Source: an uncultured Bacilli bacterium
GTDB lineage: Bacteria; Bacillota_I; Bacilli_A; RFN20; CAG-826
Direction of reading: 5' to 3'
Assembly: GCA_944363565.1 (NCBI GenBank)
Contig: CALVUI010000002.1
Span: forward strand, 206,408 to 270,407
DNA: 64,000 nucleotides
Shown: positions 3,106-45,422 of the stretch, in pieces
Layout of the letters: each line of letters starts with the position of its first letter
Position numbering within the stretch: position 1 is the stretch's first letter
Made by a program: the position numbers and the translations under genes
Notes under the pieces: model-generated
What the model was told of the DNA's origin: nothing
Seen by the model: the letters and a program-made list of their open reading frames with translations, nothing else
Database searches by the model: none

Positions 3106-3566
3106 TACTTTTCCTCGGAGATATGGACGTTGACGATGCCGTCGACTTCGCCCTGGCTTCCCTTGTAGAGTTCGATCTTCAGACGGGTATAGCCAAGGGC
3201 GTTGGCCGGATACTTGTCGATGAACTTCCGCTTGTCGATCTTGATCCCCCATTGCTTGAGCATCTCTTCTTCGATCTGCTTGGGAGAGATGGAACCGAAC
3301 ATCCGCCCGTCGCTTCCGACCTTGGCCGTGAATTCGACGTTGATGGATTTGAGCCTCTCGGCCACTTCTTCGGCTTCCTTATAAAGGACCTTCTGCCGTT
3401 CTTCTTCGATGGCGTTGCTCCGGGCTAGTTCCTTTTGGCTTCCTTCGGTCGAACGGAGGGCGAGCTTCCGGGGAATGAGGTAGTTGGTCGCATAGCCATC
3501 GCTGACGGAAATGGTGTCGCCCTTCTTTCCGAGCTTCTTGACGTCTTCTAACAAAATGACCTTCAT
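3105..3566 (-). CDS. rplI: 50S ribosomal protein L9
   Basis: MKVILLEDVKKLGKKGDTISVSDGYATNYLIPRKLA is a canonical L9 N-terminus; 153 aa. Confidence 0.95.
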   Translation of the reverse strand: MKVILLEDVKKLGKKGDTISVSDGYATNYLIPRKLALRSTEGSQKELARSNAIEEERQKVLYKEAEEVAERLKSINVEFTAKVGSDGRMFGSISPKQIEEEMLKQWGIKIDKRKFIDKYPANALGYTRLKIELYKGSQGEVDGIVNVHISEEK

Positions 3567-5593
3567 TGTTTGTCTCCTTCCTTGGTAATGTCGATGCGGG
3601 CCGAATCGAGGTATTCCTCGAGGGTCTCGAGCAAGGTTTTCTCGGCCTGCTCGACGGTTTGGCCGTTGAACGAGGCGGCCGCCGAGGTGAAATGGCCCCC
3701 GCCGCCCATTTTCTCACAAAGCAGTTGGACGTTGACCGAGCCATCGCTCCGCGCCGATATTCTAACCATTTTTTCATCGGTCTTGCCGATGACGAAGCAG
3801 GCATTGATGCCCTTGAGTTGCATCAATTGGTTGGCAACCTTGGCCAGGGTCGAACGCTCAACCAAATACTTCCCATCGGTCTTGCAGTAGACGATCCCAT
3901 AGTAGGGGGTCGTCATGGTGGAAATGATCTTGGTGATGAGGGTATATTCCTCGAACTCGTCCTTCAGATAGTAATCGGCGACCGCGTTGTCGGCCCCGAA
4001 GGACTTGAGGATCTCCGCCGCTTCGAAGGAGCGGGAACCAGTCGACTGGTTCTTGAAGAAATTGGTATCGAGGAAGATGCCCGAGAGCATGATGGTGGCG
4101 TAGGCCGGCTTGATCTCGATGGCCGGGTTGGCGGTCGCGTAATGGATCATCTCGGCGATCATTTCCGAGGCTGAGGAAGCCGAGGGGTCGACGTAGTTCA
4201 AGACCGGCTTGCTGACATATTCCTCGCCCCGGCGGTGGTGGTCGATGATGACGACCTTGCCGGCTTTTTCCAGCAAAGCGGGACACATGGTGAGGGAGGG
4301 GCGGGAAACGTCCACCACGAAGACCAGGGTCGAATCCTTGATCGAAGACAAGGCTTCGGACGGAGAGATGACCAGGGAATCGTAGACATCCTTGGGGAAG
4401 GCTTCCTGGAAGGCAATCCGGGCCTTCTTTTCCGCCTGCTTGGGGGAATAGACGATCTTGCAGGCCTTGCTGCAGTATTCGCAGAGGGCCTTGATGCCGA
4501 GACAACTGCCGAGGGCATCCATGTCCATTTCGTCATGGCCCATGACCATGACCGAGGAAGCCGAACGGATGAGGGCTAAGGTCGAGTCGGCGACCGAGCG
4601 GACCTTGACCTTGTTGGTGGCCTCGAAGGCCGCCGTCTTGCCGCCGTAGAAGCGGAGGTCGGAGCCGTACTTGGATACGACGGCCTGGTCACCGCCGCGA
4701 CTGAGGGCGATGTCGATGGCGTTGGAAACCATTTCGTTGAGGCGGATGGCATCCGGGAAGTCATGGGCAAAGCCGATGGACAAAGTAAGGGGAGCGGAGG
4801 GCCCGCTTTGGCAGGAACGGACCTTCTCGAGGACGGCAAAGCCATCGAGCTGCATCTTCTCAAGAGAGGTCCAGTTGCAGACCGCGAAGTAGGTATCGGC
4901 GCTCACCCTTCTAAGCAAGGCGCCCTTCTCCCGGAAGTAATCGCCGATCTCGCTTCTGACCTTGGCCAAGGTATCGTTGGTGTCTTCTTCCTCACCGGCC
5001 CTTTCGGCGTAGTTGTCGATCATGACGACCCCAAGGGCCAAGGCCTGGCCCCGGGAATAGGAAAGGAGGTTTTCGTATTCGGTGACGTCATGGAAGATGA
5101 AGAGGTGCGACTCAGCCACGTACTTGACCGAATAGGTCCGGCCCTTGAGTCCTACTTCGATGGTCTTGCTGGCCGGCCCGTCCATCAATTTCAGCAAGGC
5201 CGGGTCGACTGAAGAAAGGGGCTGGTCAATAAAATCGATCTGCCGTTCCTTGAAGAGGGAGTTGGTCCACATGACCGATTTCTCGTCATCGATGACGATG
5301 AGGCCGATCTTGGCAAAGGAATAGGCTTCCTGGATGTCGCTTCCGACCAAGGTCGCGGTTTCCAAATCGGACTTGTTCCTGACCCGGCTCAAGGAGGCGA
5401 CCGAAAGCCAGTAGAGGAGGAAGTTAAGGAGCAAGAGGACAAGGGCCATCACCACGACGTAGGAAACGGGGATGACCTCGGAAATGGAGGCGAAGTCAAA
5501 ATAGTAGGCCACCAGGGTCAAGGCCAGCAAAATGAATTCGATTCCCGCGATCAGCGTCGCGTAGATCCGGATGCGGCGGATGGCTTTCCTCAT
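3563..5593 (-). CDS. gdpP: c-di-AMP phosphodiesterase GdpP (2 TM helices, degenerate GGDEF, DHH and DHHA1 domains)
   Basis: N-terminal TM pair; DHH motif IIDHHRRG; DHHA1 GGGGH motif; conserved yybT-rplI-dnaC gene order. Confidence 0.85.
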   Translation of the reverse strand: MRKAIRRIRIYATLIAGIEFILLALTLVAYYFDFASISEVIPVSYVVVMALVLLLLNFLLYWLSVASLSRVRNKSDLETATLVGSDIQEAYSFAKIGLIVIDDEKSVMWTNSLFKERQIDFIDQPLSSVDPALLKLMDGPASKTIEVGLKGRTYSVKYVAESHLFIFHDVTEYENLLSYSRGQALALGVVMIDNYAERAGEEEDTNDTLAKVRSEIGDYFREKGALLRRVSADTYFAVCNWTSLEKMQLDGFAVLEKVRSCQSGPSAPLTLSIGFAHDFPDAIRLNEMVSNAIDIALSRGGDQAVVSKYGSDLRFYGGKTAAFEATNKVKVRSVADSTLALIRSASSVMVMGHDEMDMDALGSCLGIKALCEYCSKACKIVYSPKQAEKKARIAFQEAFPKDVYDSLVISPSEALSSIKDSTLVFVVDVSRPSLTMCPALLEKAGKVVIIDHHRRGEEYVSKPVLNYVDPSASSASEMIAEMIHYATANPAIEIKPAYATIMLSGIFLDTNFFKNQSTGSRSFEAAEILKSFGADNAVADYYLKDEFEEYTLITKIISTMTTPYYGIVYCKTDGKYLVERSTLAKVANQLMQLKGINACFVIGKTDEKMVRISARSDGSVNVQLLCEKMGGGGHFTSAAASFNGQTVEQAEKTLLETLEEYLDSARIDITKEGDKQ

Positions 5594-5629: not shown

Positions 5630-5839
5630 ATAGGGCTTGCACCCAAAAGGAATTCCTAGAAAGGCCGGTATCCAATCAAACCGAAAACCGATATATCGAA
5701 AACCCCGCAAAAGTGAATCATTTGGAATGTTATCCCCATTTTAGGACTCCTTGGGTTATAAAAAGGACAAATAAGGTTTTCATGGGTCTTAATGATGCCA
5801 TTACCCCCGAAATCAGAGCCTTTTCCACCCTTTAAGCAA

Positions 5840-5869
5840 CAAAAAAAGACCTGCCTTAACGGACGGGTC
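5840..5869 (-). terminator. rho-independent terminator downstream of the vat remnant
   Basis: Minus-strand imperfect GC hairpin GACCCGTCCGTTAAGGCAGGTC followed by TTTTTTT. Confidence 0.5.
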
Positions 5870-5885: not shown

Positions 5886-6003
5886 CCTAATGTCGCCATA
5901 CGACACCATCCGTCTCCGAAACTACGATCTTCTCCCTTCTGGTGCGATCATGCCGCGTTTCCCTCCTTCCGCGAACGACTTTTTCAAAATATCCCTTGCC
6001 CAT
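5886..6003. repeat. composite island repeat, copy A (unit 2 only), fused to the vat remnant
   Basis: About 85-90% identity to 8609-8740 and 10783-10920 (TAATGTCGCC..CCATCCGTC.CCGAAACTACGATCTTCTCCCTTCTGGTGCGATCATGCCGCGTTTCC...). Confidence 0.85.
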
Positions 6004-6291
6004 TATGTTGAATGGGTAGGTAGAGATTCCGTTAAAGCGGTGATTGGCGCCGTTCATGATGAACCTAACGCCCTTGGCGATTGCGCAGAACTTCCCGATG
6101 ATCAGTTTGTCCCCGATGAATGGGTAATGGTGGCTTACGTGGCTTTCGAAATCCACACCGCCGGTTTCGCTATCGTCATAATAGGTGTAGTCGCCAATGA
6201 CGATATTGGGGTTTTTGACGACGTTTTTTATAAAGCAGACGCTTGGGACCTTTGGATTGGGATGGATGTCGTTCTTATTGGGGCCTTCCAT
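5887..6291 (-). pseudogene. vat: truncated streptogramin A / xenobiotic acetyltransferase (Vat family, hexapeptide-repeat) remnant: about 110 N-terminal codons, then repeat-derived sequence and a stop
   Basis: MEGPNKNDIHPNPKVPSVCFIKNVVKNPNIVIGDYTYYDD...HYPFIGDKLIIGKFCAIAKGVRFIMNGANHRFNGISTYPFN matches the Vat(D)/SatA N-terminal half; the C-terminal ~100 aa of LbH repeats are missing and the ORF ends inside repeat copy A. Confidence 0.7.
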
Positions 6292-6470: not shown

Positions 6471-6706
6471 ATGACAAACATCCAACAAAGACTCCTCGAC
6501 CTAAGCTAAGGAAGGAAAAGGGGCTGACCCAGGAGGAGGTGGGCGCCAAGCTCGGCGTCTCCCCCAAAGCGTCTCAAAATGGGAAAACGGCCTCACCTAC
6601 CCCGACATCGACCTCCTCCCGGAGATCGGGGACTCTATCGAGGTAAGCTATTATGACGGCCTTCTTGGCGAGCCATATTACATATACGCAGGCTACGTCT
6701 TTTGAA
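6471..6706 (+). pseudogene. XRE-family (Cro/CI-type HTH) transcriptional regulator disrupted by two frameshifts
   Basis: Three frames together spell MTNIQQRLLDL / RKEKGLTQEEVGAKLGVSPKA / VSKWENGLTYPDIDLLPEIGDSIEVSYYDGLLGEPYY. Shifts lie at a CTAAG direct duplication (~6505) and near a C5 run (~6570). AAAGGA RBS 7 nt before the ATG at 6471. Confidence 0.55.
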
Positions 6707-7095
6707 TAGGATCCCACGGCCTTCTCGCAAAACGCCGTCAGGAGGCTCCTCCAGTAGCATCCGTTCCTAGGCGAGGCGCGCCCGTCTTCGCATTCCCCTG
6801 TGGAATCCAGGAGGACGCCCTCCACAGCCTCGCTGAAATCCTTCTCCATCCCGCATCTTAGCATCTCGCCAGCGGGAATGGGGCTTCCTCAAGGGAGCCC
6901 TTCGCGTCGTCTTTTGCCATGCGGCTTTCTCTTTCCTAGGCAAATGCAAGGATAGAAGTCTACTTCTTGGGAATCTAGCCCTTCCGCGGTAGCCCAGTGG
7001 ACGTTCGCGGACGGGTTTTTAGCTTACACAACATTTATCCGCGGTCCCGAAGATTAGGCCAACGCTTCCCCCGCGTGTGAATCCCTCTCCCAATG

Positions 7096-8340
7096 TCAAA
7101 TGGCTTCCTTCCCAAGGAATAAATCGATTGCATTTATGTGGCGAACCCCTTCTTGCTGATCTCTAAGCAGATCAAGGGAAATGATATATCGGGGATAGCC
7201 ATCTCTTATTTCCCTAAATGGCCTATATTCCCTTTCCTTGGTTTCCTCGTTTCCCGTCATCGTATATGCGACTTGGATATAGGCATAATCGCCATTTTGC
7301 TTTCTTACGATAAAATCGCATTCGAAATTGCCGATTTTCCCCACGCTTACTTGGTATCCGTTGCTAACCAAATAAAGATAAACAATGTTTTCCAATGAGT
7401 GGCCATAGTTCAATTTGTTATTGACGTTAGTTGAAAAATACAACGCCAAATCTGCTAGGTAATACTTTTGTTCTCTCAACAAGGACCTTTTGGATTTCAA
7501 ATCGAATCTATCGCATTCATATATGATTTTGGCTTTCTTTAAAACCTCAATGTAGTTCTTAATCGTTGCGATCTTTGCTTTAATGCCGGCTTTAGTTAAC
7601 GAATAGTGAAAGCTTTTTAGGGAAAAGGGCGAAGCGTAATTGTTGATGATGTATGACTGAACCCTCTCAAAAAGGGCTAGATTGGAAATCCTGTTTCTGG
7701 TTTTGACGTCTTTATTGAATATTTCGGCGATTATCTGGCTTGTATATAGTTGTTTGGCGCTAAAATCGTCAAACTCCAAAGCCTTTGGAAAACCGCCTTC
7801 CATGATATAGGAGTTAAATTCTTCGTAAACATTATTCTTGATTGTCTTGCTGAAGAATTTTTTCATTTCAAGATATTCGCGAAAATCCAATGGATATGTT
7901 TCGAAAGCAACATATCTTCCGGTCAATTTAGTCGAAATTTCATCGCTTAAAAGATATGAATTTGAACCGGTTAAAAAAACCGAGTAGCCTTCTTCTTCGT
8001 ATTGAAGCACCACTTTTTCAAAACCTCTGACATTTTGGACCTCATCGATAAATAGATAATATCTGCCTGAGTCATGAATCCGTTCTTCTATTTTGCTTTC
8101 CAGTTGCTTTGGGGTGACGATATTCTTGTATCCCCTTTTATCCAAGGGCAAATAAATGATTCTGTCAGACAGGTTCCTTGACTCCAATTCGCTGATAATG
8201 GATTTCAAAATCGATGTTTTGCCAGACCTTCTAATGCCCGTAATAACCTTTACGACATCGCTATCGTAAAATGGCCTGATTTTCGACAAGTACTTTTCCC
8301 TTGGATAAATCATATTCTCCATAAGTTTGTTTCCGTCCAA
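7096..8340 (-). CDS. AAA+ superfamily ATPase (AAA_14 + DUF4143, COG1373-type)
   Basis: GIRRSGKTSIL P-loop, LFIDEVQ Walker B; 414 aa; gene is markedly AT-rich relative to its flanks. Confidence 0.75.
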   Translation of the reverse strand: MDGNKLMENMIYPREKYLSKIRPFYDSDVVKVITGIRRSGKTSILKSIISELESRNLSDRIIYLPLDKRGYKNIVTPKQLESKIEERIHDSGRYYLFIDEVQNVRGFEKVVLQYEEEGYSVFLTGSNSYLLSDEISTKLTGRYVAFETYPLDFREYLEMKKFFSKTIKNNVYEEFNSYIMEGGFPKALEFDDFSAKQLYTSQIIAEIFNKDVKTRNRISNLALFERVQSYIINNYASPFSLKSFHYSLTKAGIKAKIATIKNYIEVLKKAKIIYECDRFDLKSKRSLLREQKYYLADLALYFSTNVNNKLNYGHSLENIVYLYLVSNGYQVSVGKIGNFECDFIVRKQNGDYAYIQVAYTMTGNEETKEREYRPFREIRDGYPRYIISLDLLRDQQEGVRHINAIDLFLGKEAI

Positions 8341-8530
8341 TGGTTTATATCATTAAATCGGGTTTAAGGGTAGTGTTTTTGAGAAAAGTTAAAAAAACAG
8401 TCCCCTTAAACGGCCATTTACTTGCAAAACGGAAGTCCTTGGCTTATTGGCTTTTTAGTGGAAATAAAATCTAACCCCCTATGGTTTGACGGAAATGGCC
8501 ATCAGGGTAATGCCCTGATCAAATAGTAGA

Positions 8531-8930
8531 AAAGGGCCTCGCCGAGGAGGCCCTTGGAGAACGGTTCTTGTTGTGATTTCCGGGGCAATCGAGCCCGGGA
8601 AACTACAATTAATGTCGCCGCACGGGCCCATCCGTCCCCGAAACTACGATCTTCTCCCTTCTGGTGCGATCATGCCGCGTTTCCCTCCTTCCGCGAACGG
8701 CTTTTCCAAAGGATCCCTTGCCCACGCCCAGGCAGCCTCGCATAAGGACAATGCAGGCGCCGTCTTGATTATCCGGCCTTGCCACGAAGCGATCCGGGCT
8801 TGCCTGGAAAGCGTTTCTGGCAGTCTAAGGAATTCGCCAAGGCATAAGTAAAAGGCCGCGCCGAGCAGGCCCATGGAGAACGGTTGCCGCATCTGGCCTA
8901 TCCGGGCTGCCACAGAGAAAACTAGACTGT
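8531..8930. repeat. composite island repeat, copy B (unit1-unit2-unit3-partial unit1/3)
   Basis: Unit 1 (8531-8606) ~90% identical to 10696-10790 and 11028-11100; unit 2 (8609-8740) to 5886-6003 and 10783-10920; unit 3 (8745-8855) to 10920-10990 and partly 10640-10700. Confidence 0.85.
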
Positions 8931-9079
8931 TTTAAAAGCGTAGCTGGCTAGCTAGATGCTTTACCTAAACGCAAGAAAAGTCCTCTTGGAGAGAGCCCTT
9001 TAAAAACGGTTTTTCTGTCGCTTCGGGCGGATCGAACTGCCTGACCGTATAGCCCGCCGGCTTTAAAAAGAGCGAATGG

Positions 9080-10408
9080 TCAGAGTATTTCCCAATACCC
9101 GCTTTTACGTGACCCGATGCGTTTCAGAATTTTGCCATCGCGTAGGGACTTAAGATGACGGTAAACGGTTATTTCGGCTTTGCCAGTTGCCTTGGCCAAA
9201 TCATCAATCCGGCTAAATTTGTTCTTGCGCAAGGCATCAAGTATCGCCTCGTCGACGTCGTCTTTCGCATTATCGATTCCATCATTCAAGAATCGCTTGT
9301 TCCTTATGAAGAGAAAAGTGAAGCCGAACTCATCGTTTCGGTACTCGTAGCCAATGCTATTGCGGTCGCAAAGAGTAAATGTTCTCTCGAAGCCGGTTCC
9401 GAAAGCATCGATATACCCGCATTTGTAAAGCACAGACGCAATGAGCACGTTCCGTATTTTGCTGCCTACCTCCGCGGTGGCGAATTTCATTGGGTCGATG
9501 TTTTTGTAAATCGATCCCGGGTTATAAATCCGTATCGATGACTTGAATATCGTTATTTGGTTGAAATCCCCTTTGACCCCGTACTTGCTATGCACAAAGC
9601 TGTTCACCACGATTTCGCGAATGGCTTCAATCGGTATTTCGGGCGTTTCGACCCTTTGAATTCCTTGAATTTCCGATTTGTAGCTTATGTGGTTCTGAAT
9701 ATAGGAAACCGCTTCGCGGATGCACTCAAAGATGTTTCCCTTGAACTGTTTGATTTCGCCGAATTCGGTGCGGCTGTCGGTTGGATACGAGGCTTCTTTG
9801 ACCATTACCGGCTTCCCTTTACCGAAAAGATAGTATCCAGCGGTTTTTATCCTCCCGTCCTTATCTACAAGGTCTAATTTTGTCATCGCTTCCTTGAGAC
9901 CTTTGTATACGTAATTGAGGCGTCCTTTTTCATTTGCCGTCCTTATGACGTCCAGAACGAGGTCCTCGTCGATATCCTCATAACCGCAATCGGCCGGCTT
10001 TTCCTCCCACCCCGAATACGTATCGTCCTTGGCTTCGAAGTATTTCTGAAGCTGATTATTCGTCATCGGGATGTCACCGTCGTCGAGCCGACAGAAATAG
10101 CGGCCATAAGCGGAATAGGGAGTGTCTTCTCCTTCCGCATAAACGCGGATTACTTTGCTTCCGTCAACTTCGACCACATTGATATCGAGCGTAGTTGGCA
10201 TCGGCTTCAGGCTTGTCCGTATTTCGTTCGAAAGATCAGGTAGCGTCTTAGGGCCAATGGTGAGCGGATGGGGCTTTTTGTCGGGACCAATGCCGAAAAA
10301 GACTTCTCCGCGATGGCTTTTGTTCAGCATAGCGCTTAGCGAAATGACACCTTCCCTTTCTTGGCTGAGAGACTTTTTATATTCAGTGACGACATCCTCG
10401 TTTTTCAT
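9080..10408 (-). CDS. Schlafen/AlbA_2-domain + HATPase_c_4 + C-terminal wHTH protein (COG2865-type putative DNA-binding regulator)
   Basis: 442 aa; N-terminal divergent AAA/AlbA_2 region, central ATPase-like region, C-terminal winged-helix (ITVYRHLKSLRDGKILKRIG); lower GC than flanks. Confidence 0.65.
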   Translation of the reverse strand: MKNEDVVTEYKKSLSQEREGVISLSAMLNKSHRGEVFFGIGPDKKPHPLTIGPKTLPDLSNEIRTSLKPMPTTLDINVVEVDGSKVIRVYAEGEDTPYSAYGRYFCRLDDGDIPMTNNQLQKYFEAKDDTYSGWEEKPADCGYEDIDEDLVLDVIRTANEKGRLNYVYKGLKEAMTKLDLVDKDGRIKTAGYYLFGKGKPVMVKEASYPTDSRTEFGEIKQFKGNIFECIREAVSYIQNHISYKSEIQGIQRVETPEIPIEAIREIVVNSFVHSKYGVKGDFNQITIFKSSIRIYNPGSIYKNIDPMKFATAEVGSKIRNVLIASVLYKCGYIDAFGTGFERTFTLCDRNSIGYEYRNDEFGFTFLFIRNKRFLNDGIDNAKDDVDEAILDALRKNKFSRIDDLAKATGKAEITVYRHLKSLRDGKILKRIGSRKSGYWEIL

Positions 10409-10635
10409 GTCTTTCGCTCCTTTGAACTAACTGCTGCTTTATCTTATCATTTATCTTATCATTGATGAAATAAAATGATGATATAAAAACCGGGCAGCAG
10501 TCTGCTTATCTTGGCGATTGGTAAACAATCACGGGCTTTGTTATTCGTCTTGATCATAAAACCCATCTACTTATCGACCCCGTAGGCAACCGGTCGAGGG
10601 GAACACTCAGGTCAAACTAATCTATTCTAGGCTCG

Positions 10636-11103
10636 CCATGAAGCCGTGCGGGCCCGTCTGGGAAGCGTTTCTGGCAGGCCAAGCAATTCGCCAAGGCATA
10701 AGAAAAAGGCCTCACCGAGGAGGCCCGTGGAGAACGGTTCTTGTTGTGATTTCCGGGGCAATCGAGCCCGGGAAACTACATTAACTGTCGCCATACGACG
10801 CCATCCGTCCCCGAAACTACGATCTTCTCCCTTCTGGTGCGATCATGCCGCGTTTCCATAAATCCGCGAACGGCTTTTCCAAAGGATCCCTTGCCCATGC
10901 CCAGGCAACCGGGCGACGGGAAAACGCAGGCGCCGTCTGGCTTATCCGGGCTAGCCACGAAGCGATCCGGGCTTGCCTGGGAAGCTTTGTCGGTTGATTA
11001 GTCTATTTATCTATAGGCATAGAAAAAGACCTCCCGGAGGAGGCCCTTGGAGAACGGTTCTTGTTGTGATTTCCGGGAAAATCGAGCCCGGGAAACTACA
11101 TTT
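10636..11103. repeat. composite island repeat, copy C (partial unit3-unit1-unit2-unit3-spacer-unit1), abutting the rpsR stop
   Basis: See copy B; the last unit 1 (11028-11100) is the native rpsR terminator region. Confidence 0.85.
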
Positions 11104-11110
11104 ACGCCGC

Positions 11111-11335
11111 TTATTGTCCGGCGTAGGGAAGAAGGCCCATGAAGCGGGCATTCTTGATGGCCCGGGCCAATTGGCGCTGATACTTGGCGCAAGTACCGGT
11201 CGCGCTCCTCGGGGCGATCTTGCCTTCCGGGGTGATGAAGCGCTGAAGCAACTCGACATCCTTGTAGTCGATGTGCTTGATGTGGTTCTTGGTAAAGTAG
11301 CAGACCTTCTTCCGGGGTCTCATTTTCTTGTACAT
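11111..11335 (-). CDS. rpsR: 30S ribosomal protein S18
   Basis: 74 aa, [17 protein letters not shown]...[27 protein letters not shown]. Confidence 0.95.
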
Positions 11336-27700: not shown

Positions 27701-29608
27701 CTAGGCAATCTTGAATCCGGTGTAGGTAGTCGGTTCCCCTTGGCAATAAAGGCCTAGATGGGTCGGGGCAGTGCTGATACCGCTCACGGTCCTCGAGCCG
27801 ATCTTGCTGTAGGCTCCCGCCCTCAAGGTAGCCTCGAATGTGGCCGAATCTCCGGCCATCGTGACCTTCACTTCGAGATCGAAGCCATCGGCCGGATGGA
27901 CGGCGCTTCCGTCGGCCCAGATATCGTGCCAGCCGAGGTCGGCGCCGCCGATGGTCCCGGTGATTTGGATGCAACGGATCTCGTGGGGCCGATCGGAGTC
28001 CGCGTATTGGGCGTAGACGATGACGAAGTCATTGGGTCCGGCGTAATAGGCGAGGTAGCCGAACATCAATTCCTTGGTGGCGTTCCCGGTCGTGGTCCCT
28101 TTGATGTGGCCACTTAGGGTATAGGAATTACCGACTTCCACGGGCTTACCGACGAAACCGGCCTTCCAGTTGGAGTTCTCGACGACAATGGAATCCCCGC
28201 TTTCCTCGAAGGTCGTGGGATTTCCGCCCGGGGCCAGAACCTGCCAGTCGGTCTTGATTTCTTCCTTTTCGAAGACGATGTTGCTGAAGGTCGCAACATC
28301 GCCGTTGCTATAGACGCCGGCATAGGCCGAGGGGCCGAAGCTACCGGTCATCGAGGTCGAACCGACCTTGACGGTCGACCCGGCAGTGACGTTGGCGGTC
28401 GCGGTGACACCGCTATTGGTGATTTGGACGCTGACGGAGAGACTGAGGCCATCGGCCGGGGCGACATGACAGCCATCCATCCAGATGGGACTGGGATAAG
28501 TGACCGCTCCGTTGACGGAGACGGCCGGTTGGATGGAGGTCAGGTCGCTAGGACGACCGGCACCGTTGGCCTTCCATTCGGCATAGTAGGCGATCCAGTT
28601 CTCGGCATCCTGGTAATAGGCGACGATCCCCACGGCGACGTCGTGGTCGATCGGGAGGGCGTCAATCGTCCCCTTGATGTCGGCCTTGACGGTATAGGCG
28701 TTGCCTAGCTCATTCGCGGGCTTGACCACGAAGTTCTTGAGGTGGTCGTTGTTGCTGATCTTGACGGAGTCACTAGAGGGTTGCCCATAGGCAAACTCGG
28801 CCCCGGCATTGACGACCTCGAAGCCCTTTTCGAAACCATCATAGGCGATTTCATCCCCTAGGGTCTTGGTAGCCTTGCTGCCGCTAAGGTAATCCATGTG
28901 GAAGGGGGTGCTTTCCACGTCCTTGATCGAGAGGACGAAGGCCCCATAGGGATCGACCTTGGTCATCTTCCCTTCATAGGTGAGGATGTCGTCGGCGTTG
29001 GCCTTAAGGACGACCGAAGAATCGCCTTGGGTCAGGCGGACTTCTTCGTCGGCCTTCAGATAACCCGGCAGCTTGATCGAGACATCGAGGTCAACATAGA
29101 CCGGATTGGGGTCGCAGCTATAGGTGATGACCAAACTACTGATCGTCGTCTCCTCGAAGGCCTCCAAGTTGAAGTAACTCGGGGAGCCGATGACCTCGGT
29201 CGGGACTTCGTTGACCGGAAGCTTGACGGGGACAAGGGCCCCGGCCTCACTCCCGAAGGAGAGGGCCAAACTTCCCTCATAGGAAATGGTGATCCCCTTG
29301 ATCCCGGTGATGGGATCGCTGTTGGAAAGGCTCCCGCCCCGATTGAGGAGGGCGTGTCCGGCCTCCGGCTTTTCCCCGAGGCCTTCATAGACGAACTTGA
29401 CCTTCCCTTGCTTGGTGTTGCTGAGCAAGACCTGTTCCTTGGTCCCGGCTTCCGGGGCGTTGTCGGCACTGAGGGTGAAGGTATAGCCCTCGTCGGCTCC
29501 CGCCACGACGGGGTCATTCCCATAGGCCGAAGCGCAGGCGATCGCGGCCACCATCCCGGTCGCTAGTAAGCCCACGCCCATGATTTTGGCAAAACTACTC
29601 TTTTTCAT
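27701..29608 (-). CDS. secreted lipoprotein with repeated beta-sandwich-like (carbohydrate-binding?) domains
   Basis: Start at MKKSSFAKIMGVGLLATGMVAAIACASAYG (lipobox AIAC), AAAGGAGA RBS; shares W/YY-x-D-x-N-[YWF] repeat-domain signatures with the 954-aa neighbour. Confidence 0.7.
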   Translation of the reverse strand: MKKSSFAKIMGVGLLATGMVAAIACASAYGNDPVVAGADEGYTFTLSADNAPEAGTKEQVLLSNTKQGKVKFVYEGLGEKPEAGHALLNRGGSLSNSDPITGIKGITISYEGSLALSFGSEAGALVPVKLPVNEVPTEVIGSPSYFNLEAFEETTISSLVITYSCDPNPVYVDLDVSIKLPGYLKADEEVRLTQGDSSVVLKANADDILTYEGKMTKVDPYGAFVLSIKDVESTPFHMDYLSGSKATKTLGDEIAYDGFEKGFEVVNAGAEFAYGQPSSDSVKISNNDHLKNFVVKPANELGNAYTVKADIKGTIDALPIDHDVAVGIVAYYQDAENWIAYYAEWKANGAGRPSDLTSIQPAVSVNGAVTYPSPIWMDGCHVAPADGLSLSVSVQITNSGVTATANVTAGSTVKVGSTSMTGSFGPSAYAGVYSNGDVATFSNIVFEKEEIKTDWQVLAPGGNPTTFEESGDSIVVENSNWKAGFVGKPVEVGNSYTLSGHIKGTTTGNATKELMFGYLAYYAGPNDFVIVYAQYADSDRPHEIRCIQITGTIGGADLGWHDIWADGSAVHPADGFDLEVKVTMAGDSATFEATLRAGAYSKIGSRTVSGISTAPTHLGLYCQGEPTTYTGFKIA

Positions 29609-29756
29609 GGTTCTCCTTTTTGTAAGCGCTTCCAACGCCTTCCGCCCCAAAGACTGACGACGGGGGAACGTTTTCTGACGCAAGTCCATTCTAAGGGGGC
29701 CATATAAGGGCCTTAATGCCACAAGCCTAGGCTCTTATACAATTTGGCACCATGAA

Positions 29757-29812: not shown

Positions 29813-32677
29813 TTACTTGGCCTTTTTGTTGCGTTGACGCATATAGAGGTAGACGCCAAGACCAACGAGGAGAAGGACGCCGATCCCCCCGAAGACGAGG
29901 CCGAGGATGAGGCCGAGGTTTTCGTTTTCGGGTTCGGTCGGAGTGACGTCGGTACCGCCAGTCGAGGTGCTGCTTTCGCCCTCTCCGGTCGCCGGCTTTT
30001 CGGCAACCGTGATGTCGTATTCGATCGGGTCGGCTTCGTTGCCCCAGTCATCGATGCAGGTAACGCTGACATGGTAGGCCCCGAGCTTTTCGGCCGTGAA
30101 GGCATTGGAGACCAGGGTCACGGGATTATCAGTCGGATCGGTGACGTTGACGATGGCGTTCAAAGGATCGTAGTTGCTATTGGAGGCGGTGTAGATCGGA
30201 AGACGGACACTATCCCCTAAGTAGGCCTCGGTGACCCGGGTCCCGACTTCGGCGATGACCGGCTTTTCGTTATAGGAGTAGACCCGTTCGTCGACCCCGA
30301 GGGCGAAGTCCTTGAAGGTCGCGGAGACGTTGGAGATGTTGAAGCCGCTCTTGGCTCCGCTTAGCCGTCTAGCCGATAGACCCGGGTATTCGCCCTGGTA
30401 GACCGGGGCGAAGGTCCCGCCGACATAGACGGAGATGGTATCGCCTTCGATATGGGCTTCGAGCTTGTTGTCGGCCCCTTCGAACTGGATCCCGACTTCC
30501 CTCTCGCCCCATTCGGGCGGGATGATCTGGCCATTGATGCGGACCGTGGTGTTGACGTTGGTGGTCGAACCGGCCCAACGGCTGAACCAGACGAAGACGT
30601 AGTTGTTGCTGTCGACGTAGTAGGGGACAAGACCGACCTTGTGCTCGCTGGCGGTCACTTCGGAAACATTGACCGTGGCCCCGCACCAGAAGTCGGTCTT
30701 TTCGTTGCTGATGAGGGCATTGGTCTGCTGCCAGACGGTCCCGCCATCGAGCTTCCCGGTGACGGTCCCGTTTTCCTCATCGATGGTCCAGGTATCGGGA
30801 CGGGGGCCGTTCAGGCTCCAATCCCCTTCCTGGACGGTGCTGTTGGGAAGGAAGCCGGTATAGGTAAGGCTATTGAGGCTCCCGCCCTGGCCTTCAAAGA
30901 AGAAGCCGGTGGCTAGAGCTTCGGAGAAGTCGAAGTCGTTGAGGACGAAGCCTTCGACGACAGAGGTTCCGTCAAGGCTGACATTGAGGACGCCCCTCTT
31001 CAGTTCGGTGGAAAGTTCATGGGGAGCCAAGGCATCGAACCCTTCGGGGAGGGCATTGGTGGTCGGGGTTTCCACTCCGTTCACGCAGACATAGACGGTG
31101 ATGGCGGACTTGCCCAAAGCGACCCTGACGTAATTGTCGACATCTACCAAGAAGGCATAGAGACCGTATTCCTGGCCATCCTGCAGAGCCGCGAAGGTGG
31201 CGCTGACCGAGATATTGCCGACATAGCGAGTAGAGAAATAAAGTCCGGCCACTCCTTCCTGGTCGCCGCTTTTGACGGCCAGATCATCGACGGTGTAGGT
31301 CCCGCCTTCATAGGAGAAGACGCTATCGTCGTCGGTGGCCGACTTGACATTGACAAGCTGGCCACCGACCGAGGCCACCCGCCAGTCGAAGGCCTGGTAT
31401 TGGATGGAGGCGGTTTCGTAGGTGAAGGTGACGTTCATGCCGCTGACGGCCGTCCCGATCATGTTAGAAGAGGCAAAGGTGGCATTGGAAGCAGTCAAGA
31501 CCGTGGCCCGGTCGTTTTCGAGATAGACCGAGATGGTGTTGCCCTTCTTTTGGGCAATGATGGTGATATTGCCATCTTGGTCGGCTTTTTGCGCCGATTC
31601 ACCAAGTTCCAGGGATTCATAGATCGGGGTTTGGTTCATGGTGCCCCCGGCCCCGTAGACGGTGACGAGGCCTTCGATGTAGAGGGTCCTCTTACCGCCC
31701 AGATCAAGGATATAGGCGACTGCGTAGTTGGTTTCGTCGTTGTACCAGGCGACCAGGCCGATCGCCGACTTGTCGACCAAGGCGGTTTCCGGGAAGGTGG
31801 CCTTCAGCTCATAGTTCCCCTCATAGGGGTTCTTGCCAAGGGCCATGGTCGAGGCCACGCCACTCGCGGTGGTTTCGTCAATCGCGTAGGTCTTGTCGTT
31901 GATGGTCCAATTCCCGGAAGCGGATTTGGCGACGATCCCCGGAGTGACTTCGTGGTAGAGGTCGGTCCTCGCATTTTCGGCCACTTCAAAGGAAGTGATC
32001 TCGAGGTTCTCGTTGTAGGTATAGATCCCGACCTTCGAGGGTTTGGTCGAATACTTGGGAAGATCGCGGAAGCCATAGAAACCGACCTTGTTGCCGTTGA
32101 TGTAGGCGCTGAATTCGTCGGTATCCCCGGCCGCGCTCCTTTCCTTCTTGACCTCGAAGGTCCAGGAGGAGTCGGGGGAGACGGCAAAGCCCTCGTTGGC
32201 CCCGTCCATCCAGGCGTCGTTCCACTCGGCTTCGACGAAGCCCCCGTCCTTGTAGACGACCGGGGCCTTGCCGTCGATCCGGCCGGTGAACTCGACGACC
32301 CGCATCCCGCTCGGCCTTTCGGTCGGGCTCCATTCCATGTAGACCACCAGGTAGTTGTTGGCGTCCAAATACCAAGGGACAAGGCCGATCTGGATGTTCT
32401 TGGTCACGGGCCAGGCCGTTTCGCCCTTGCCCTCGATCTTGACGCTGTAGTCGCCTAAATAACTATCGGCTTCATAAAGGAGGAAGTTGTCGCGCATCCC
32501 GGTTTGGGAAGCGGAGGCAAGGATCGAATCCTCGCTTATCGTGTAATAACTCGAGACGTCTCCGCCGGTAGAAAGCGACCAGTCGGCGGCCTTGAAGGCC
32601 GCTCTCGGGGCGGCATTAGCCCCCGAGACGCCGGTCAAGGAAGCGAGGGCCAAGACGGGGATCAACAATCCGTTCAT
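29813..32677 (-). CDS. large cell-surface protein: signal peptide, 4 or more copies of a ~110-aa repeat domain, C-terminal TM anchor with basic tail
   Basis: MNGLLIPVLALASLTGVSGANA signal; repeats containing GLVPWYLDANNYLVVY / GLVAWYNDETNYAVAY / GLYAFLVDVDNYVRVA / GLVPYYVDSNNYVFVW; C-terminal hydrophobic segment LGLILGLVFGGIGVLLLVGLGVYLYM then RQRNKKAK. Confidence 0.75.
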   Translation of the reverse strand: MNGLLIPVLALASLTGVSGANAAPRAAFKAADWSLSTGGDVSSYYTISEDSILASASQTGMRDNFLLYEADSYLGDYSVKIEGKGETAWPVTKNIQIGLVPWYLDANNYLVVYMEWSPTERPSGMRVVEFTGRIDGKAPVVYKDGGFVEAEWNDAWMDGANEGFAVSPDSSWTFEVKKERSAAGDTDEFSAYINGNKVGFYGFRDLPKYSTKPSKVGIYTYNENLEITSFEVAENARTDLYHEVTPGIVAKSASGNWTINDKTYAIDETTASGVASTMALGKNPYEGNYELKATFPETALVDKSAIGLVAWYNDETNYAVAYILDLGGKRTLYIEGLVTVYGAGGTMNQTPIYESLELGESAQKADQDGNITIIAQKKGNTISVYLENDRATVLTASNATFASSNMIGTAVSGMNVTFTYETASIQYQAFDWRVASVGGQLVNVKSATDDDSVFSYEGGTYTVDDLAVKSGDQEGVAGLYFSTRYVGNISVSATFAALQDGQEYGLYAFLVDVDNYVRVALGKSAITVYVCVNGVETPTTNALPEGFDALAPHELSTELKRGVLNVSLDGTSVVEGFVLNDFDFSEALATGFFFEGQGGSLNSLTYTGFLPNSTVQEGDWSLNGPRPDTWTIDEENGTVTGKLDGGTVWQQTNALISNEKTDFWCGATVNVSEVTASEHKVGLVPYYVDSNNYVFVWFSRWAGSTTNVNTTVRINGQIIPPEWGEREVGIQFEGADNKLEAHIEGDTISVYVGGTFAPVYQGEYPGLSARRLSGAKSGFNISNVSATFKDFALGVDERVYSYNEKPVIAEVGTRVTEAYLGDSVRLPIYTASNSNYDPLNAIVNVTDPTDNPVTLVSNAFTAEKLGAYHVSVTCIDDWGNEADPIEYDITVAEKPATGEGESSTSTGGTDVTPTEPENENLGLILGLVFGGIGVLLLVGLGVYLYMRQRNKKAK

Positions 32678-45295: not shown

Positions 45296-45422
45296 GGGGG
45301 CATTCTAAGCCTTAAGGCAAGGGGCCGCAAAAGGGTTTAGCTCCTTCTTCTTTGAATAAAGAAGACGTGTTATAGTTTCGCCGTTGGGACAATCGTCCCT
45401 CAATTTGTCTTAGGAGGACACA

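Follow-up and report, generated by a model that had tools for sequence, protein, structure and literature searches.

The apparent rpsR terminator of an uncultured Bacilli genome is element-borne and probably the end of a transposon-like module with Tn7-like targeting

Between rpsR and gdpP, the window analyzed here (the whole 64-kb stretch of DNA) contains an array of repeated units and cargo genes. The unit that adjoins rpsR, named unit 1, had been taken in an earlier note for the native terminator of the rpsR operon, and the other copies for duplicates of it. In this work, we found that all copies of unit 1 are element-borne, that at 11020-11104 among them, and that none is a host terminator. 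Unit 1 is the proximal end of a module that probably belongs to a non-autonomous transposon-like element with Tn7-like targeting. The features of this region, listed from rpsR to gdpP, are as follows:

11111-11335, minus strand: rpsR (ribosomal protein S18), the last gene of the rpsF-ssb-rpsR operon (open reading frame; PF01084 on the identical protein)
11137-11155, minus strand: conserved motif in the rpsR coding sequence, AAGAATGCCCGCTTCATGG (K-N-A-R-F-M-G), with its first base 55 nt upstream of the module start
11101-11110, minus strand: host spacer GCGGCGTAAA from the rpsR stop codon to the module, species-specific
10786-11100, minus strand: module copy 1, full length (TGTAG...GGCGACA; nhmmer, model positions 1-314, E = 1e-105)
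11020-11100, minus strand: unit 1 copy C in module copy 1, with a hairpin and U tract at about 11020-11048
10781-10785, minus strand: junction spacer GTTAA (5 nt), from the end of module 1 to the start of module 2
10584-10780, minus strand: module copy 2, positions 1-197 (nhmmer E = 2e-48)
10700-10780, minus strand: unit 1 copy B in module copy 2, with a terminator-like hairpin at about 10700-10726
9080-10408, minus strand: cargo gene 1, a protein of 442 aa with SLFN_AlbA_2, HATPase_c_4, and winged-helix domains (Pfam)
8887-9035, minus strand: strongly decayed module copy, positions 16-169 (nhmmer E = 1e-11, alignment)
8613-8885, minus strand: module copy, positions 42-314 (nhmmer E = 4e-91), starting with a partial unit 1 (8847-8885)
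8608-8612, minus strand: junction spacer TTAAT (5 nt), the same 5-mer as before the first module in the sister strains L002-L006
8523-8607, minus strand: unit 1 copy A alone, module positions 1-84 (nhmmer E = 4e-26)
7096-8340, minus strand: cargo gene 2, an AAA_14/DUF4143 ATPase of 414 aa, 36-37% GC (Pfam; composition)
6004-6291, minus strand: first half of a streptogramin A (Vat-type) acetyltransferase gene, truncated and continuing into a module fragment
5891-6003, minus strand: last module fragment, positions 202-314, ending in ...GGCGACA at the distal array edge (nhmmer E = 2e-32)
5836-5868, minus strand: hairpin and U7 directly distal of the array (fold -10.2 kcal/mol)
3563-5593, minus strand: gdpP-type DHH phosphodiesterase, the first conserved gene past the array (Pfam domains on the identical protein)

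Three module-based units can be recognized in the window, and their cargo comprises an AlbA_2/Schlafen-like protein, an AAA_14/DUF4143 ATPase, and half of a Vat acetyltransferase gene. The region of cargo gene 1 has a GC content of 46-50%, and the protein is 98.9% identical to one in another MAG (L009) with a different cassette order; the decayed module at 8887-9035 lies directly 3' of the stop of this gene (9080). Cargo begins directly after the U tract of unit 1 copy A, and in strain L004, the same gene as cargo gene 2 is found directly after the first module and a unit 1. Residues 3-104 of the truncated Vat protein match residues 2-100 (of about 210) of VatA/VatD (phmmer against PDB, E = 1e-25). 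The earlier view that the repeated units bound separately acquired, low-GC cargo is supported. A Vat origin of the module was rejected, as the similarity at L016 (7516-7728) is due only to the module fragment fused to the truncated Vat gene of the window. An IS256-type transposase remnant at 6574-6864 was suspected from the sequence, has no Pfam support, and is not claimed. The region beyond rpsR ends at gdpP in the window and at ppa or cysK in other species. Because we found no empty-site strain of the window's own species, we infer rather than observe, by analogy to the empty and occupied strains of two related species (see below), that the hairpin at 5836-5868 is the probable native terminator of its rpsF-ssb-rpsR operon; an empty site in this species would be expected to read rpsR-TAA-GCGGCGTTA-GGCAAAAACGAG.

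A repeat search of the window placed the 85-nt unit 1 family at 8527-8611, 10700-10784, and 11020-11104, with the second and third copies being 93 and 92% identical to the first, respectively. The ~90% identity reported previously was borne out, the coordinates agree within a few bases, and the identity is far above the ~70% that had been set as a lower limit. Unit 1 belongs to a ~320-nt period, in which the order in the direction of rpsR is unit1-unit3-unit2, and a longer repeat (D1) pairs 8528-8815 with 10701-10988 at 89% identity. The degenerate copy reported at 8853-8895 does exist, but alignment moves it to 8847-8885, where the terminator half alone is retained (39 nt, 87%); the other degenerate copy, at 8887-9035, had been overlooked. 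The segment 8886-8925, considered as a diverged unit 1 start, was rejected as such, since nhmmer assigns it to positions ~130-169 of the decayed module.

On the minus strand, two hairpins are predicted in each of the copies C, B, and A, the second one being a GC-rich stem followed by UUUUUCU or UUUUCU. The folding energies of these hairpins are -16.1 kcal/mol (z = -3.75) for C, -12.1 kcal/mol (z = -2.1) for B, and -16.6 kcal/mol (z = -3.5) for A, and copy B was also called terminator-like by a consensus scan. The hairpin is weakened in the partial copy at 8847-8885 (-9.8 kcal/mol, z = -0.5) and decayed in the copy at 8887-9035 (-5.9 kcal/mol). As had been proposed, a terminator-like hairpin is present in every good copy. 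It is not confined to the copy adjoining rpsR; C, B, and A all fold into the GC-rich hairpin with a U tract on the transcribed strand that characterizes intrinsic (Rho-independent) terminators, and transcription would be predicted from these folds to terminate at unit 1.

The module of which unit 1 forms the rpsR-proximal end is ~316 bp in length (5'-TGTAG...GGCGACA-3') and extends, in the direction of rpsR, from 5'-TGTAGTTTCCCGGG... to ...CCGTGCGGCGACA-3'. Its ends are sharp at all loci, at the outer array edges as well as at the internal junctions, which consist of ...GGCGAC(A), 4-6 nt, and TGTAG.... The ends form an imperfect terminal inverted repeat of ~36 bp, in which the exact terminal register matches at 18 of 30 and 21 of 36 positions, and only 0.05-0.09% of the other registers within the module do equally well. 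This inverted repeat is weak (about 58%), and each end is also a local palindrome. The only recurring motifs in the ends are GTAGTTTC (twice, in direct orientation) and CCC(C/G)G(G/A)AA.

The conservation of the module does not follow that of its hosts. Across genera, the module is 81-91% identical (mean column identity of 88% in the alignment), compared to a nucleotide identity of only ~70% for rpsR. For the module next to rpsR, two strains with 99% identical rpsR have modules that are 80.7% identical, and two hosts with rpsR and ssb identities of 70.7 and 58.9% have modules that are 91.4% identical. The GC content is 56-58% in the module vs. 42-43% in the host, and the few bases from the rpsR stop codon to the TGTAG edge vary by species. 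The mismatch between module and host phylogenies, the sharp TGTAG edge after a species-differing spacer, the GC difference, and the empty sites of two related species, in which a different terminator follows rpsR (see below), are the reasons why we consider unit 1 everywhere to be element-borne. They argue against the earlier reading of the unit 1 beside rpsR as the native terminator, and for the same four reasons the view of the other copies as regenerated host flank is not supported.

The earlier proposal that the rpsR 3' flank is the insertion target is supported. In all 13 distinct junctions that were scanned, and also in L031 and L037, which were counted by hand, the module begins 55-58 nt from the conserved rpsR motif, although the stop codon precedes the module by 0-16 nt; these junctions represent at least nine sequence types of rpsR. 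The positions homologous to the window's spacer are still rpsR coding sequence in L013 and L032. The orientation of the module relative to rpsR is the same in every junction. The constant distance could be partly due to common ancestry of the junctions rather than repeated targeting.

Comparison between empty and occupied strains was possible in two species. In the species of L045-L054, seven of the ten places are empty and read rpsR-TAA-AAACAAA-CGGCCTTCGGGCCGTTTTCTTTT-ppa. The occupied L047 reads ...AAACAAA/TGTAG...GGCGACA/ACAAA/CGGCC... (slashes mark the boundaries), and L049 and L031 have the same flanks minus one A at the right junction (GGCGAC/ACAAA). The second species is represented by the empty L039 and the occupied L037, whose flanks are 98.5% identical. 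The insert in L037 has CGCAA on both sides (with a 1-nt offset on the left) where the empty L039 reads CGTGAA, and the native terminator seen in L039 is displaced to the far side of the insert. In both species, the empty strains have no module and carry a native terminator unlike unit 1 directly behind rpsR; in the occupied strains, the insert is located between the rpsR stop codon and the native terminator and is accompanied by a 5-bp host duplication (ACAAA and CGCAA, respectively). The duplication is intact in a few cases only: the outer flanks of the window share just TTA (TTAAT as in L002 vs. TTAGG), the duplicated 5-mer is offset by 3-4 nt in L022 and L023, and at the array flanks of L010, it was looked for and not seen.

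We propose that the module represents an end pair or a miniature form of a non-autonomous transposon-like element, which would enter in a single orientation, behind the rpsR stop codon and ahead of the native terminator of the operon, at a point fixed 55-58 nt from the conserved motif in the rpsR coding sequence, and would duplicate 5 bp of host DNA. The proximal end would supply its own terminator-like hairpin in place of the native terminator that is cut off from rpsR, which may be the reason why unit 1 looks like the rpsR terminator. Repeated insertion at one spot would produce head-to-tail modules with host-derived 5-nt spacers in between, foreign DNA would come to sit between the modules, and homologous recombination between modules may shuffle, trim, and delete cassettes. 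The insertion would be carried out by a DDE-type transposase that acts with a Tn7/TnsD-like target selector and is encoded at some other locus. The element might also move to targets other than rpsR, a supposition given that copies were found only in the rpsR array.

The transposase is hypothetical, since no enzyme gene was found in any array. Pfam searches of the cargo proteins revealed no transposase, integrase, or Tn7-type gene in about 15 arrays, and the same scan found none among the window's cargo ORFs or the 20 large window ORFs outside the array. Likewise, no tnsA/B/C/D/E or TnsD/TniQ genes were identified in the sequences examined (arrays and surroundings). Viral contigs, phage records, and plasmid records contain no match to the module, and a scan of JGI metagenomes gave a single match.

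Tn7 has 5'-TGT...ACA-3' termini and generates a 5-bp target duplication, to which the TGTAG...GGCGACA termini of the module and the 5-bp duplications in L031/L049/L047 and L037 are comparable. The ends sum to about 240 bp in Tn7 and about 316 bp in the module, and the cargo of the rpsR arrays is also rich in defence-type genes. At attTn7, a conserved essential gene is recognized as the target, and the element inserts immediately behind it, so that genes are spared from disruption (PMC1475584). In what may be a similar arrangement to this insertion at glmS, the modules are located 55-58 nt from a conserved rpsR motif regardless of the stop codon position, in a single orientation, and between the stop codon and the terminator. 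However, there are several differences. No tnsA/B/C/D/E or transposase gene was found in or near any array, the several direct ~22-bp transposase-binding sites typical of Tn7 were not apparent in the module, whose ends are instead each a local palindrome, and the rpsR elements accumulate in tandem, which is normally barred by Tn7 target immunity. In addition, the gene targeted is rpsR, and the arrays occur in uncultured gut Bacilli.

An alternative that we regard as unlikely is that unit 1 is the native rpsR terminator and that the attP of a tyrosine integrase carries a copy of the rpsR 3' flank, which would be regenerated upon every integration; the related idea that the array is a tandem accretion of integrase-less, CIME-like remnants appears just as doubtful. 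The rpsR 3' end is an integration hub in staphylococci, where islands of the SaPI4 family, with a 15-bp core, use the rpsR neighborhood as a hub for accessory DNA (PMC8407400), and rpsI islands have 160-bp (160-163 bp) direct repeats (PMC5341023). The arrays described here resemble these islands in having the same hub neighborhood and accessory DNA bounded by direct repeats. Moreover, where two modules meet, an inverted repeat surrounds a 5-7-nt spacer, as in a tyrosine-recombinase core site, and in several genomes, the host bases to the left of the insertion point are similar to the final 8-12 nt of the module (e.g., GCGGCG vs. the module end GCGGCGAC in the window and GGCGAACGTGT vs. GGCGACACGTGT in L022). 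However, the SaPI4 and rpsI islands encode a tyrosine integrase, and the gene end is part of a fixed core in their repeats, whereas the arrays examined here have no integrase, repeats that follow a species-specific spacer, and variable host duplications. The duplicated 5-mers differ by event (ACAAA, CGCAA, GCTAA, and CTTAT) and do not provide a constant core common to attL and attR. Since the 5-mers are host sequence (ACAAA, in the empty strains of the L045-L054 species) or nearly identical to it (CGTGAA, in L039), a fixed attP core is ruled out as their source. The empty sites, which lack unit 1 and carry a different terminator, and the module identities, which do not follow the host phylogeny, also argue against this alternative. 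A lambda-like model, with unit3-unit2 as the P arm, unit 1 as the P' arm, and crossover in the spacer, fits the array layout but was dropped as the first choice because of the empty sites with variable, host-derived 5-bp duplications.

For the junctions within arrays, we found that the spacers are genome-specific and match, either exactly or within 1-2 nt, the 4-5 bases of host sequence on the left side of the first module (TTAAT, CCAA, CTTA(T), CGTGT, and CTAA). Cargo located exactly at a module-module junction is flanked by direct repeats of 5-6 bp, namely, (T)GCTAA for a DUF2961 cassette and CTTAT for an HTH cassette in L018 and again in L047. It is quite improbable that such arrays arose with no dedicated enzyme, as a recombination hot spot of intergenic repeats in which cassettes are swapped among strains by homologous recombination, and we place similarly little weight on swaps that follow transformation or circle integration, with new junctions formed by illegitimate recombination. 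Several patterns do fit exchange between repeats: overlapping partial modules flank cargo (M1-197 and M42-314 in the window; M1-255 and M61-314 in L037), the difference between L047 and L049 corresponds exactly to single-crossover integration of a circle that contains a module and cargo, cassette loss leaves intact single modules (L010 and L022), and the Vat gene joins the module within a ~25-nt stretch that is readable as both. However, recombination cannot place a module in a homology-free empty site (L045 to L049 and L039 to L037), nor can it give 5-bp target duplications or identical sharp ends next to flanks that are about 70% identical. Three independent cargo insertions at the same module-module junction, among ~320 possible positions, also speak against it. 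Homologous recombination is very likely a secondary process rather than the origin of the array.

We give almost no credence to the possibility that the ~320-nt period arose by tandem duplication behind rpsR of a structured non-coding RNA gene or of what is left of a protein-coding gene. The high conservation across genera, predicted helices with 97.5% pairing and numerous G-C to G-U changes, and open frames that persist on both strands and are annotated by gene callers may point in this direction. However, cargo interrupts the unit at many positions, and the RNAalifold consensus shows almost no covariation (one compensatory pair), which is not above controls, the observed values being attained by 96, 126, and 40 of 500 shuffles. 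In addition, neither strand of unit3-unit2, described as coding-like in the earlier note, looks coding, given variable columns of 24/24/21 per codon position with no 3-periodicity, frame-breaking single-base indels, and unconserved start codons. Rfam 15 gave no match in the window at the gathering score, and over the module there was none even at E <= 5, and a tRNA/tmRNA scan found nothing over the repeat. An antisense ORF ("MSPHG...") was used only as a handle to pull more loci from the protein database.

Returning to the reading of the module as a transposon-like element, it is conceivable, and we suggest this tentatively, that the arrays represent a new family of site-specific mobile elements in gut Bacilli that targets the rpsR 3' flank by measuring from a conserved coding motif, in the manner of Tn7 at glmS, and consists mostly of transposase-less miniature modules, with the tandem junctions acting as a gene-capture platform. 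With similar reservation, this family might be a functional analogue of the integron, which is rare in Bacillota; its enzyme, possibly of a new type, would have its gene at another locus. As in integrons and CALINs, co-oriented and acquired cassettes, often of a single gene, are separated by an imperfectly palindromic repeat next to a strongly expressed neighbor, the content varies among strains, and the cassettes contain no recombinase. In contrast to integrons, the repeat is about 316 bp rather than 57-141 bp as in attC sites, no IntI was found in the arrays, the GGCGACA-N5-TGTAG junctions lack RYYYAAC/GTTRRRY core sites, and target duplications are present. Another difference is the putative terminator in each repeat, which makes it unlikely that cassettes are expressed by read-through from the operon upstream.

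The module also has the terminal inverted repeats, target duplication, and non-coding nature of a miniature inverted-repeat element, and a short unit of this kind would presumably be mobilized in trans, as in MITEs and IS26-type arrays. The pseudo-compound and tandem-dimer behavior of IS26-type elements provides a basis for comparison: as in IS arrays, head-to-tail copies lie a few bases apart with cargo between direct copies, and the short direct repeats on the cargo side are similar to those of IS cointegrates. However, MITEs and ISs are normally dispersed in many copies, whereas the module was seen only at a single locus per genome. Its copies in the 64-kb window are restricted to the array, a GTDB scan found one array per MAG, and many dispersed copies per genome were found in neither. 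We know of no parent insertion sequence of the module.

If this reading is true, what appears to be the rpsR operon terminator in these genomes would be foreign DNA, which has implications for annotation. The rpsR-gdpP region (elsewhere rpsR-ppa or rpsR-cysK) would be a landing pad for accessory and defence-type genes in poorly known gut bacteria with small genomes, and rpsR would join the short list of "safe haven" targets recognized via a conserved coding sequence. The module would then be a natural miniature, trans-mobilized element that builds cassette arrays, for which both empty and occupied sites are in hand. Assemblies break at the array, as expected of a repeat, and because the repeat breaks metagenome assemblies here, MAGs would systematically lack such islands or contain them misjoined. 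Within a species, strains can be distinguished by the presence of entire cassettes, as seen between L004 and the window, among L028, L029, and L030, and among L045, L049, and L047.

In the window, lysS, a small membrane ORF, rpsF, ssb, and rpsR lie on the minus strand in that order, followed by 5.2 kb in which GC content is uneven and in part low (36-57%) and then by gdpP, rplI, and dnaB. The presence of dnaA, recF, and gyrB within the window indicates an origin-proximal region of a Bacillota-type chromosome. Among the loci compared, the closest named relative is the 'Candidatus Alloenteromonas pullistercoris' MAG. The stretch behind rpsR is an array of ~316-bp modules (units 1, 3, and 2 in the rpsR direction) and cargo genes, arranged as follows:

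11335-11111, minus strand: rpsR
11100-10786: first of three array segments, a full module
10408-9080: AlbA_2/Schlafen-type gene of the second segment, which runs from module positions 1-197 through this gene and a decayed module to module positions 42-314
8607-8523: unit 1 alone, start of the third segment
8340-7096: AAA_14/DUF4143 ATPase gene, third segment
6338-6646, plus strand: helix-turn-helix (HTH) gene fragment, third segment
5887-6291, minus strand: first half of a Vat gene, third segment
6003-5891: module positions 202-314, end of the third segment
5593-3563, minus strand: gdpP-type phosphodiesterase gene

Elsewhere in the window, four large minus-strand ORFs of 673-954 aa (27701-29722, 29813-32677, 32696-35062, and 45312-47654) have no Pfam match at E <= 1e-5.

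A repeat search of the window recovered an 85-nt family, unit 1, at 8527-8611, 10700-10784, and 11020-11104, with identities of 92-93% and in register with the ~320-nt module period. Minus-strand folding gives two hairpins per copy, and in the second one a U tract comes after a GC-rich stem; the energies of this second hairpin (-16.1, -12.1, and -16.6 kcal/mol) are all well below those of shuffled controls, and a consensus terminator scan also flags one of the copies. Transcription termination at unit 1 is only predicted, from this folding. A degenerate copy that the earlier note placed near 8853-8895 was found at 8847-8885 as the terminator half only, with a weakened hairpin (-9.8), and a profile search located a fifth copy, badly decayed and invisible to the earlier note, at 8887-9035, just behind the cargo-gene stop at 9080. 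The repeated terminator-like copies described in that note are thus borne out, with identities above ~70% and with hairpin and U tract in several copies rather than in the rpsR-adjacent one alone.

The same note had read the unit 3-unit 2 segment as coding-like, which did not hold. We found no coding signal in the module, with variable alignment columns spread 24/24/21 over the three codon positions. Because of this lack of codon-position bias, the single-base indels between module copies, and the unconserved apparent start codon of the antisense ORF, the module is judged non-coding. No Rfam family matches it, and its consensus fold has no covariation beyond controls. Both edges are sharp and identical everywhere, starting with 5'-TGTAGTTTCCCGGG and finishing with CCGTGCGGCGAC(A)-3'. 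The tips align as an imperfect inverted repeat (18/30 and 21/36 positions matching), a level reached by <0.1% of other registers, and form a weak terminal inverted repeat. GC content is 56-58% in the module versus 42-43% in the hosts for two species with empty sites, in which rpsR is followed by no module-bounded insert. In several genera, a variant 37-nt segment (ATGCCTATAGATAAATAGACTAATCAACCGACAAAGC) replaces the usual start of unit 3 in the rpsR-adjacent module (window 10989-11019; comparison loci L002-L004, L010, and L023), accompanied by a variant terminator loop (CCGGGAGGTC); further strains of the window's species lack this segment.

When one genome of each GTDB species was scanned for the exact pattern, the module turned up in seven MAGs, all from uncultured gut Bacilli; a spurious ORF called inside the module, used as a protein query, yielded many more module contigs. 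Wherever enough flank is available, the first module begins within a few bases of the end of rpsR, and the array has the same direction as rpsR. Two strains with rpsR and ssb 99% identical share 80.7% identity in the first module, against 91.4% for hosts with rpsR 70.7% and ssb 58.9% identical; judged by these identities, module similarity ignores host relatedness. Short-read metagenome contigs of the window's species (L001-L007 and L019-L021) break off inside the repeats, 0.4-4.4 kb past rpsR on one side and 0.35-2.4 kb short of gdpP on the other, so that the island is usually missing or split in assemblies.

Looking up the rpsR proteins of relatives revealed presence/absence polymorphism in two species. 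In the first, 7 of 10 places are empty and read rpsR-TAA-AAACAAA-CGGCCTTCGGGCCGTTTTCTTTT, then ppa, with a short 3' UTR, their own terminator, and no module. The occupied locus L047 of this species reads AAACAAA|TGTAG, module, cargo, module, GGCGACA|ACAAA|CGGCCTT; ACAAA at both flanks indicates that five host bases were duplicated. The occupied loci L049 and L031 have the same flanks with one A fewer at the right junction (GGCGAC|ACAAA); they share the outer duplication with L047, which carries an extra module and cassette adjoining rpsR. In the second species, the empty locus L039 reads TAA-TTCGTGAATTTGATTCTATAGAGGGGCTTAGTTGACCCCTCTTTTTTTG, and L037 holds a module-bounded acyltransferase cassette between flanks 98.5% identical to those of L039. 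CGCAA lies on both sides of this insert (the left copy offset by one base), and the terminator of L039 is now on the far side. These comparisons indicate that the insert brings along the hairpin that follows rpsR in occupied genomes and that the host terminator ends up distal. The rpsR-adjacent copy, previously taken for the native rpsR operon terminator, is therefore very probably element-borne, as is unit 1 generally. In the window, a hairpin with U7 at 5836-5868, just distal to the last module fragment, is probably the displaced native terminator, an assignment by analogy since every collected strain of the window's species has an occupied site. Intact 5-bp duplications are few, and the outer flanks of the window share only three bases.

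The insertion point is nearly constant relative to coding sequence. From the first base of the conserved rpsR coding motif (AAGAAYGCCCG..., K-N-A-R) to the first module base we counted 55-58 nt in 13/13 distinct junctions; for the two empty-site species the distances, counted in L031 and L037, are 55 and 56 nt. The stop codon lies a variable 0-16 nt before the module. The spacer between stop codon and module is short and species-specific, and the positions homologous to it are still rpsR coding sequence in two species. Between successive modules, 4-6 nt (TTAAT, CCAA, CTTA(T), CGTGT, or CTAA) match the host bases left of the first module of that genome, exactly or within 1-2 nt, as expected if the element inserts repeatedly at one fixed position and duplicates its target each time. 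The constant distance may also be partly inherited rather than re-created by repeated targeting.

The TGT/ACA ends, the weak inverted repeat, and a 5-bp variable host duplication checked against real empty sites, together with the single orientation, the fixed distance from a coding motif, and insertion between stop codon and terminator, argue for a reaction of the transposition type, not for conservative site-specific recombination. A selector would recognize the conserved gene and direct insertion just downstream without harm to it, and the module would be mobilized in trans by a hypothetical enzyme. Homologous recombination between modules is clearly superimposed on insertion; L047, for example, has the structure expected of L049 after single-crossover integration of a circle of module plus cargo. 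Taken as a whole, this transposon-like model is moderately probable. The inverted repeat at the module ends is weak, and an integrase-type island, with the module junction as the core site of a tyrosine recombinase, is also compatible with the junction geometry; however, the short duplications are variable host sequence and not a fixed core. In staphylococci, the 3' end of rpsR is a known integration hub for islands that bear an integrase and have a fixed 15-bp core (PMC8407400), and islands at rpsI carry 160-bp repeats (PMC5341023). The module arrays differ from both in the absent integrase, the variable host-derived short duplications, a ~316-bp module common to several genera, and the piling of modules into cassette arrays.

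The transposon-like model has a close parallel in Tn7, which makes a 5-bp duplication, has TGT/ACA tips, and inserts into the glmS terminator region. A selector protein of Tn7 recognizes this conserved gene, and the element goes in just downstream, harming no gene (PMC1475584). The module appears to share the targeting logic and shares the 5-bp duplication and the tips. Unlike those of Tn7, its ends have no clear multiple binding-site repeats, and Pfam scans and precomputed domains revealed no transposase or selector gene in any of the arrays or window ORFs examined; for these two reasons we do not file it as a Tn7-family member. The only transposase-related domain in any array examined is an IS30-type HTH_38 in an 81-aa ORF (L029, 14691-14936), far too short to function, in the cassette closest to rpsR of one strain. 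Functionally, the array resembles an integron array without its integrase; neither attC nor IntI features were found in it. We place the module with the site-specific mobile elements known from 'safe havens' beside conserved genes; the machinery behind it has a fair chance of being new.

In the arrays examined, cargo is without exception enclosed by module parts, and most of it points the same way as rpsR. Elsewhere than in the window it includes DUF2961, ABC ATPases, GmrSD, SPFH plus AAA ATPase, DUF4420, acyltransferase, a CmpB-type membrane protein beside an uppP fragment, and others. Whole cassettes differ between strains of one species, and cassette order varies between genomes. Trimming and inter-module recombination are sufficient to explain cargo between overlapping partial modules. 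Two cassettes are placed precisely at a junction between modules and are flanked by short direct repeats, namely, DUF2961 with (T)GCTAA and an HTH cassette with CTTAT, the latter in two unrelated contigs; a third insert of 73 nt at the same junction has no direct repeat.

The window's Vat-type streptogramin A acetyltransferase gene (E = 1e-25 to VatA/VatD structures) is cut off at about residue 100 of ~210 and reads on into the module fragment, with the join inside a ~25-nt stretch of similarity between the two partners, suggestive of microhomology-mediated recombination. Non-coding debris between the second cargo gene and this fragment includes the XRE-type HTH remnant (PF01381, E = 2e-5), the frame of which is broken. 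A widely shared cassette, with a 50-94-aa undecaprenyl-diphosphatase (BacA/UppP) fragment beside the CmpB-type protein (L016:6370-6654; L023, L028-L030, and L034), resembles a stretch captured from some other chromosome more than an orderly gene cassette. The cassette after the module in L014 (24-4089, minus strand) codes for an SPFH/Band-7 protein that has zinc ribbons, for three small uncharacterized proteins, and for an AAA ATPase, and may be a multi-gene defence system.

A different element of ~242 nt, with no Rfam match, occupies almost the same rpsR-terminator spot in one strain of a species with empty sites (L054:9237-9478). It starts with TGTTCTCAGG, has a long internal inverted repeat (GGGGCAAGGAATCG ... 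CGAATCCTTGCCCC), and is flanked by a ~11-nt duplication, GATAAAA(A)CA. The rpsR-terminator gap may attract elements of more than one kind as an insertion hot spot.
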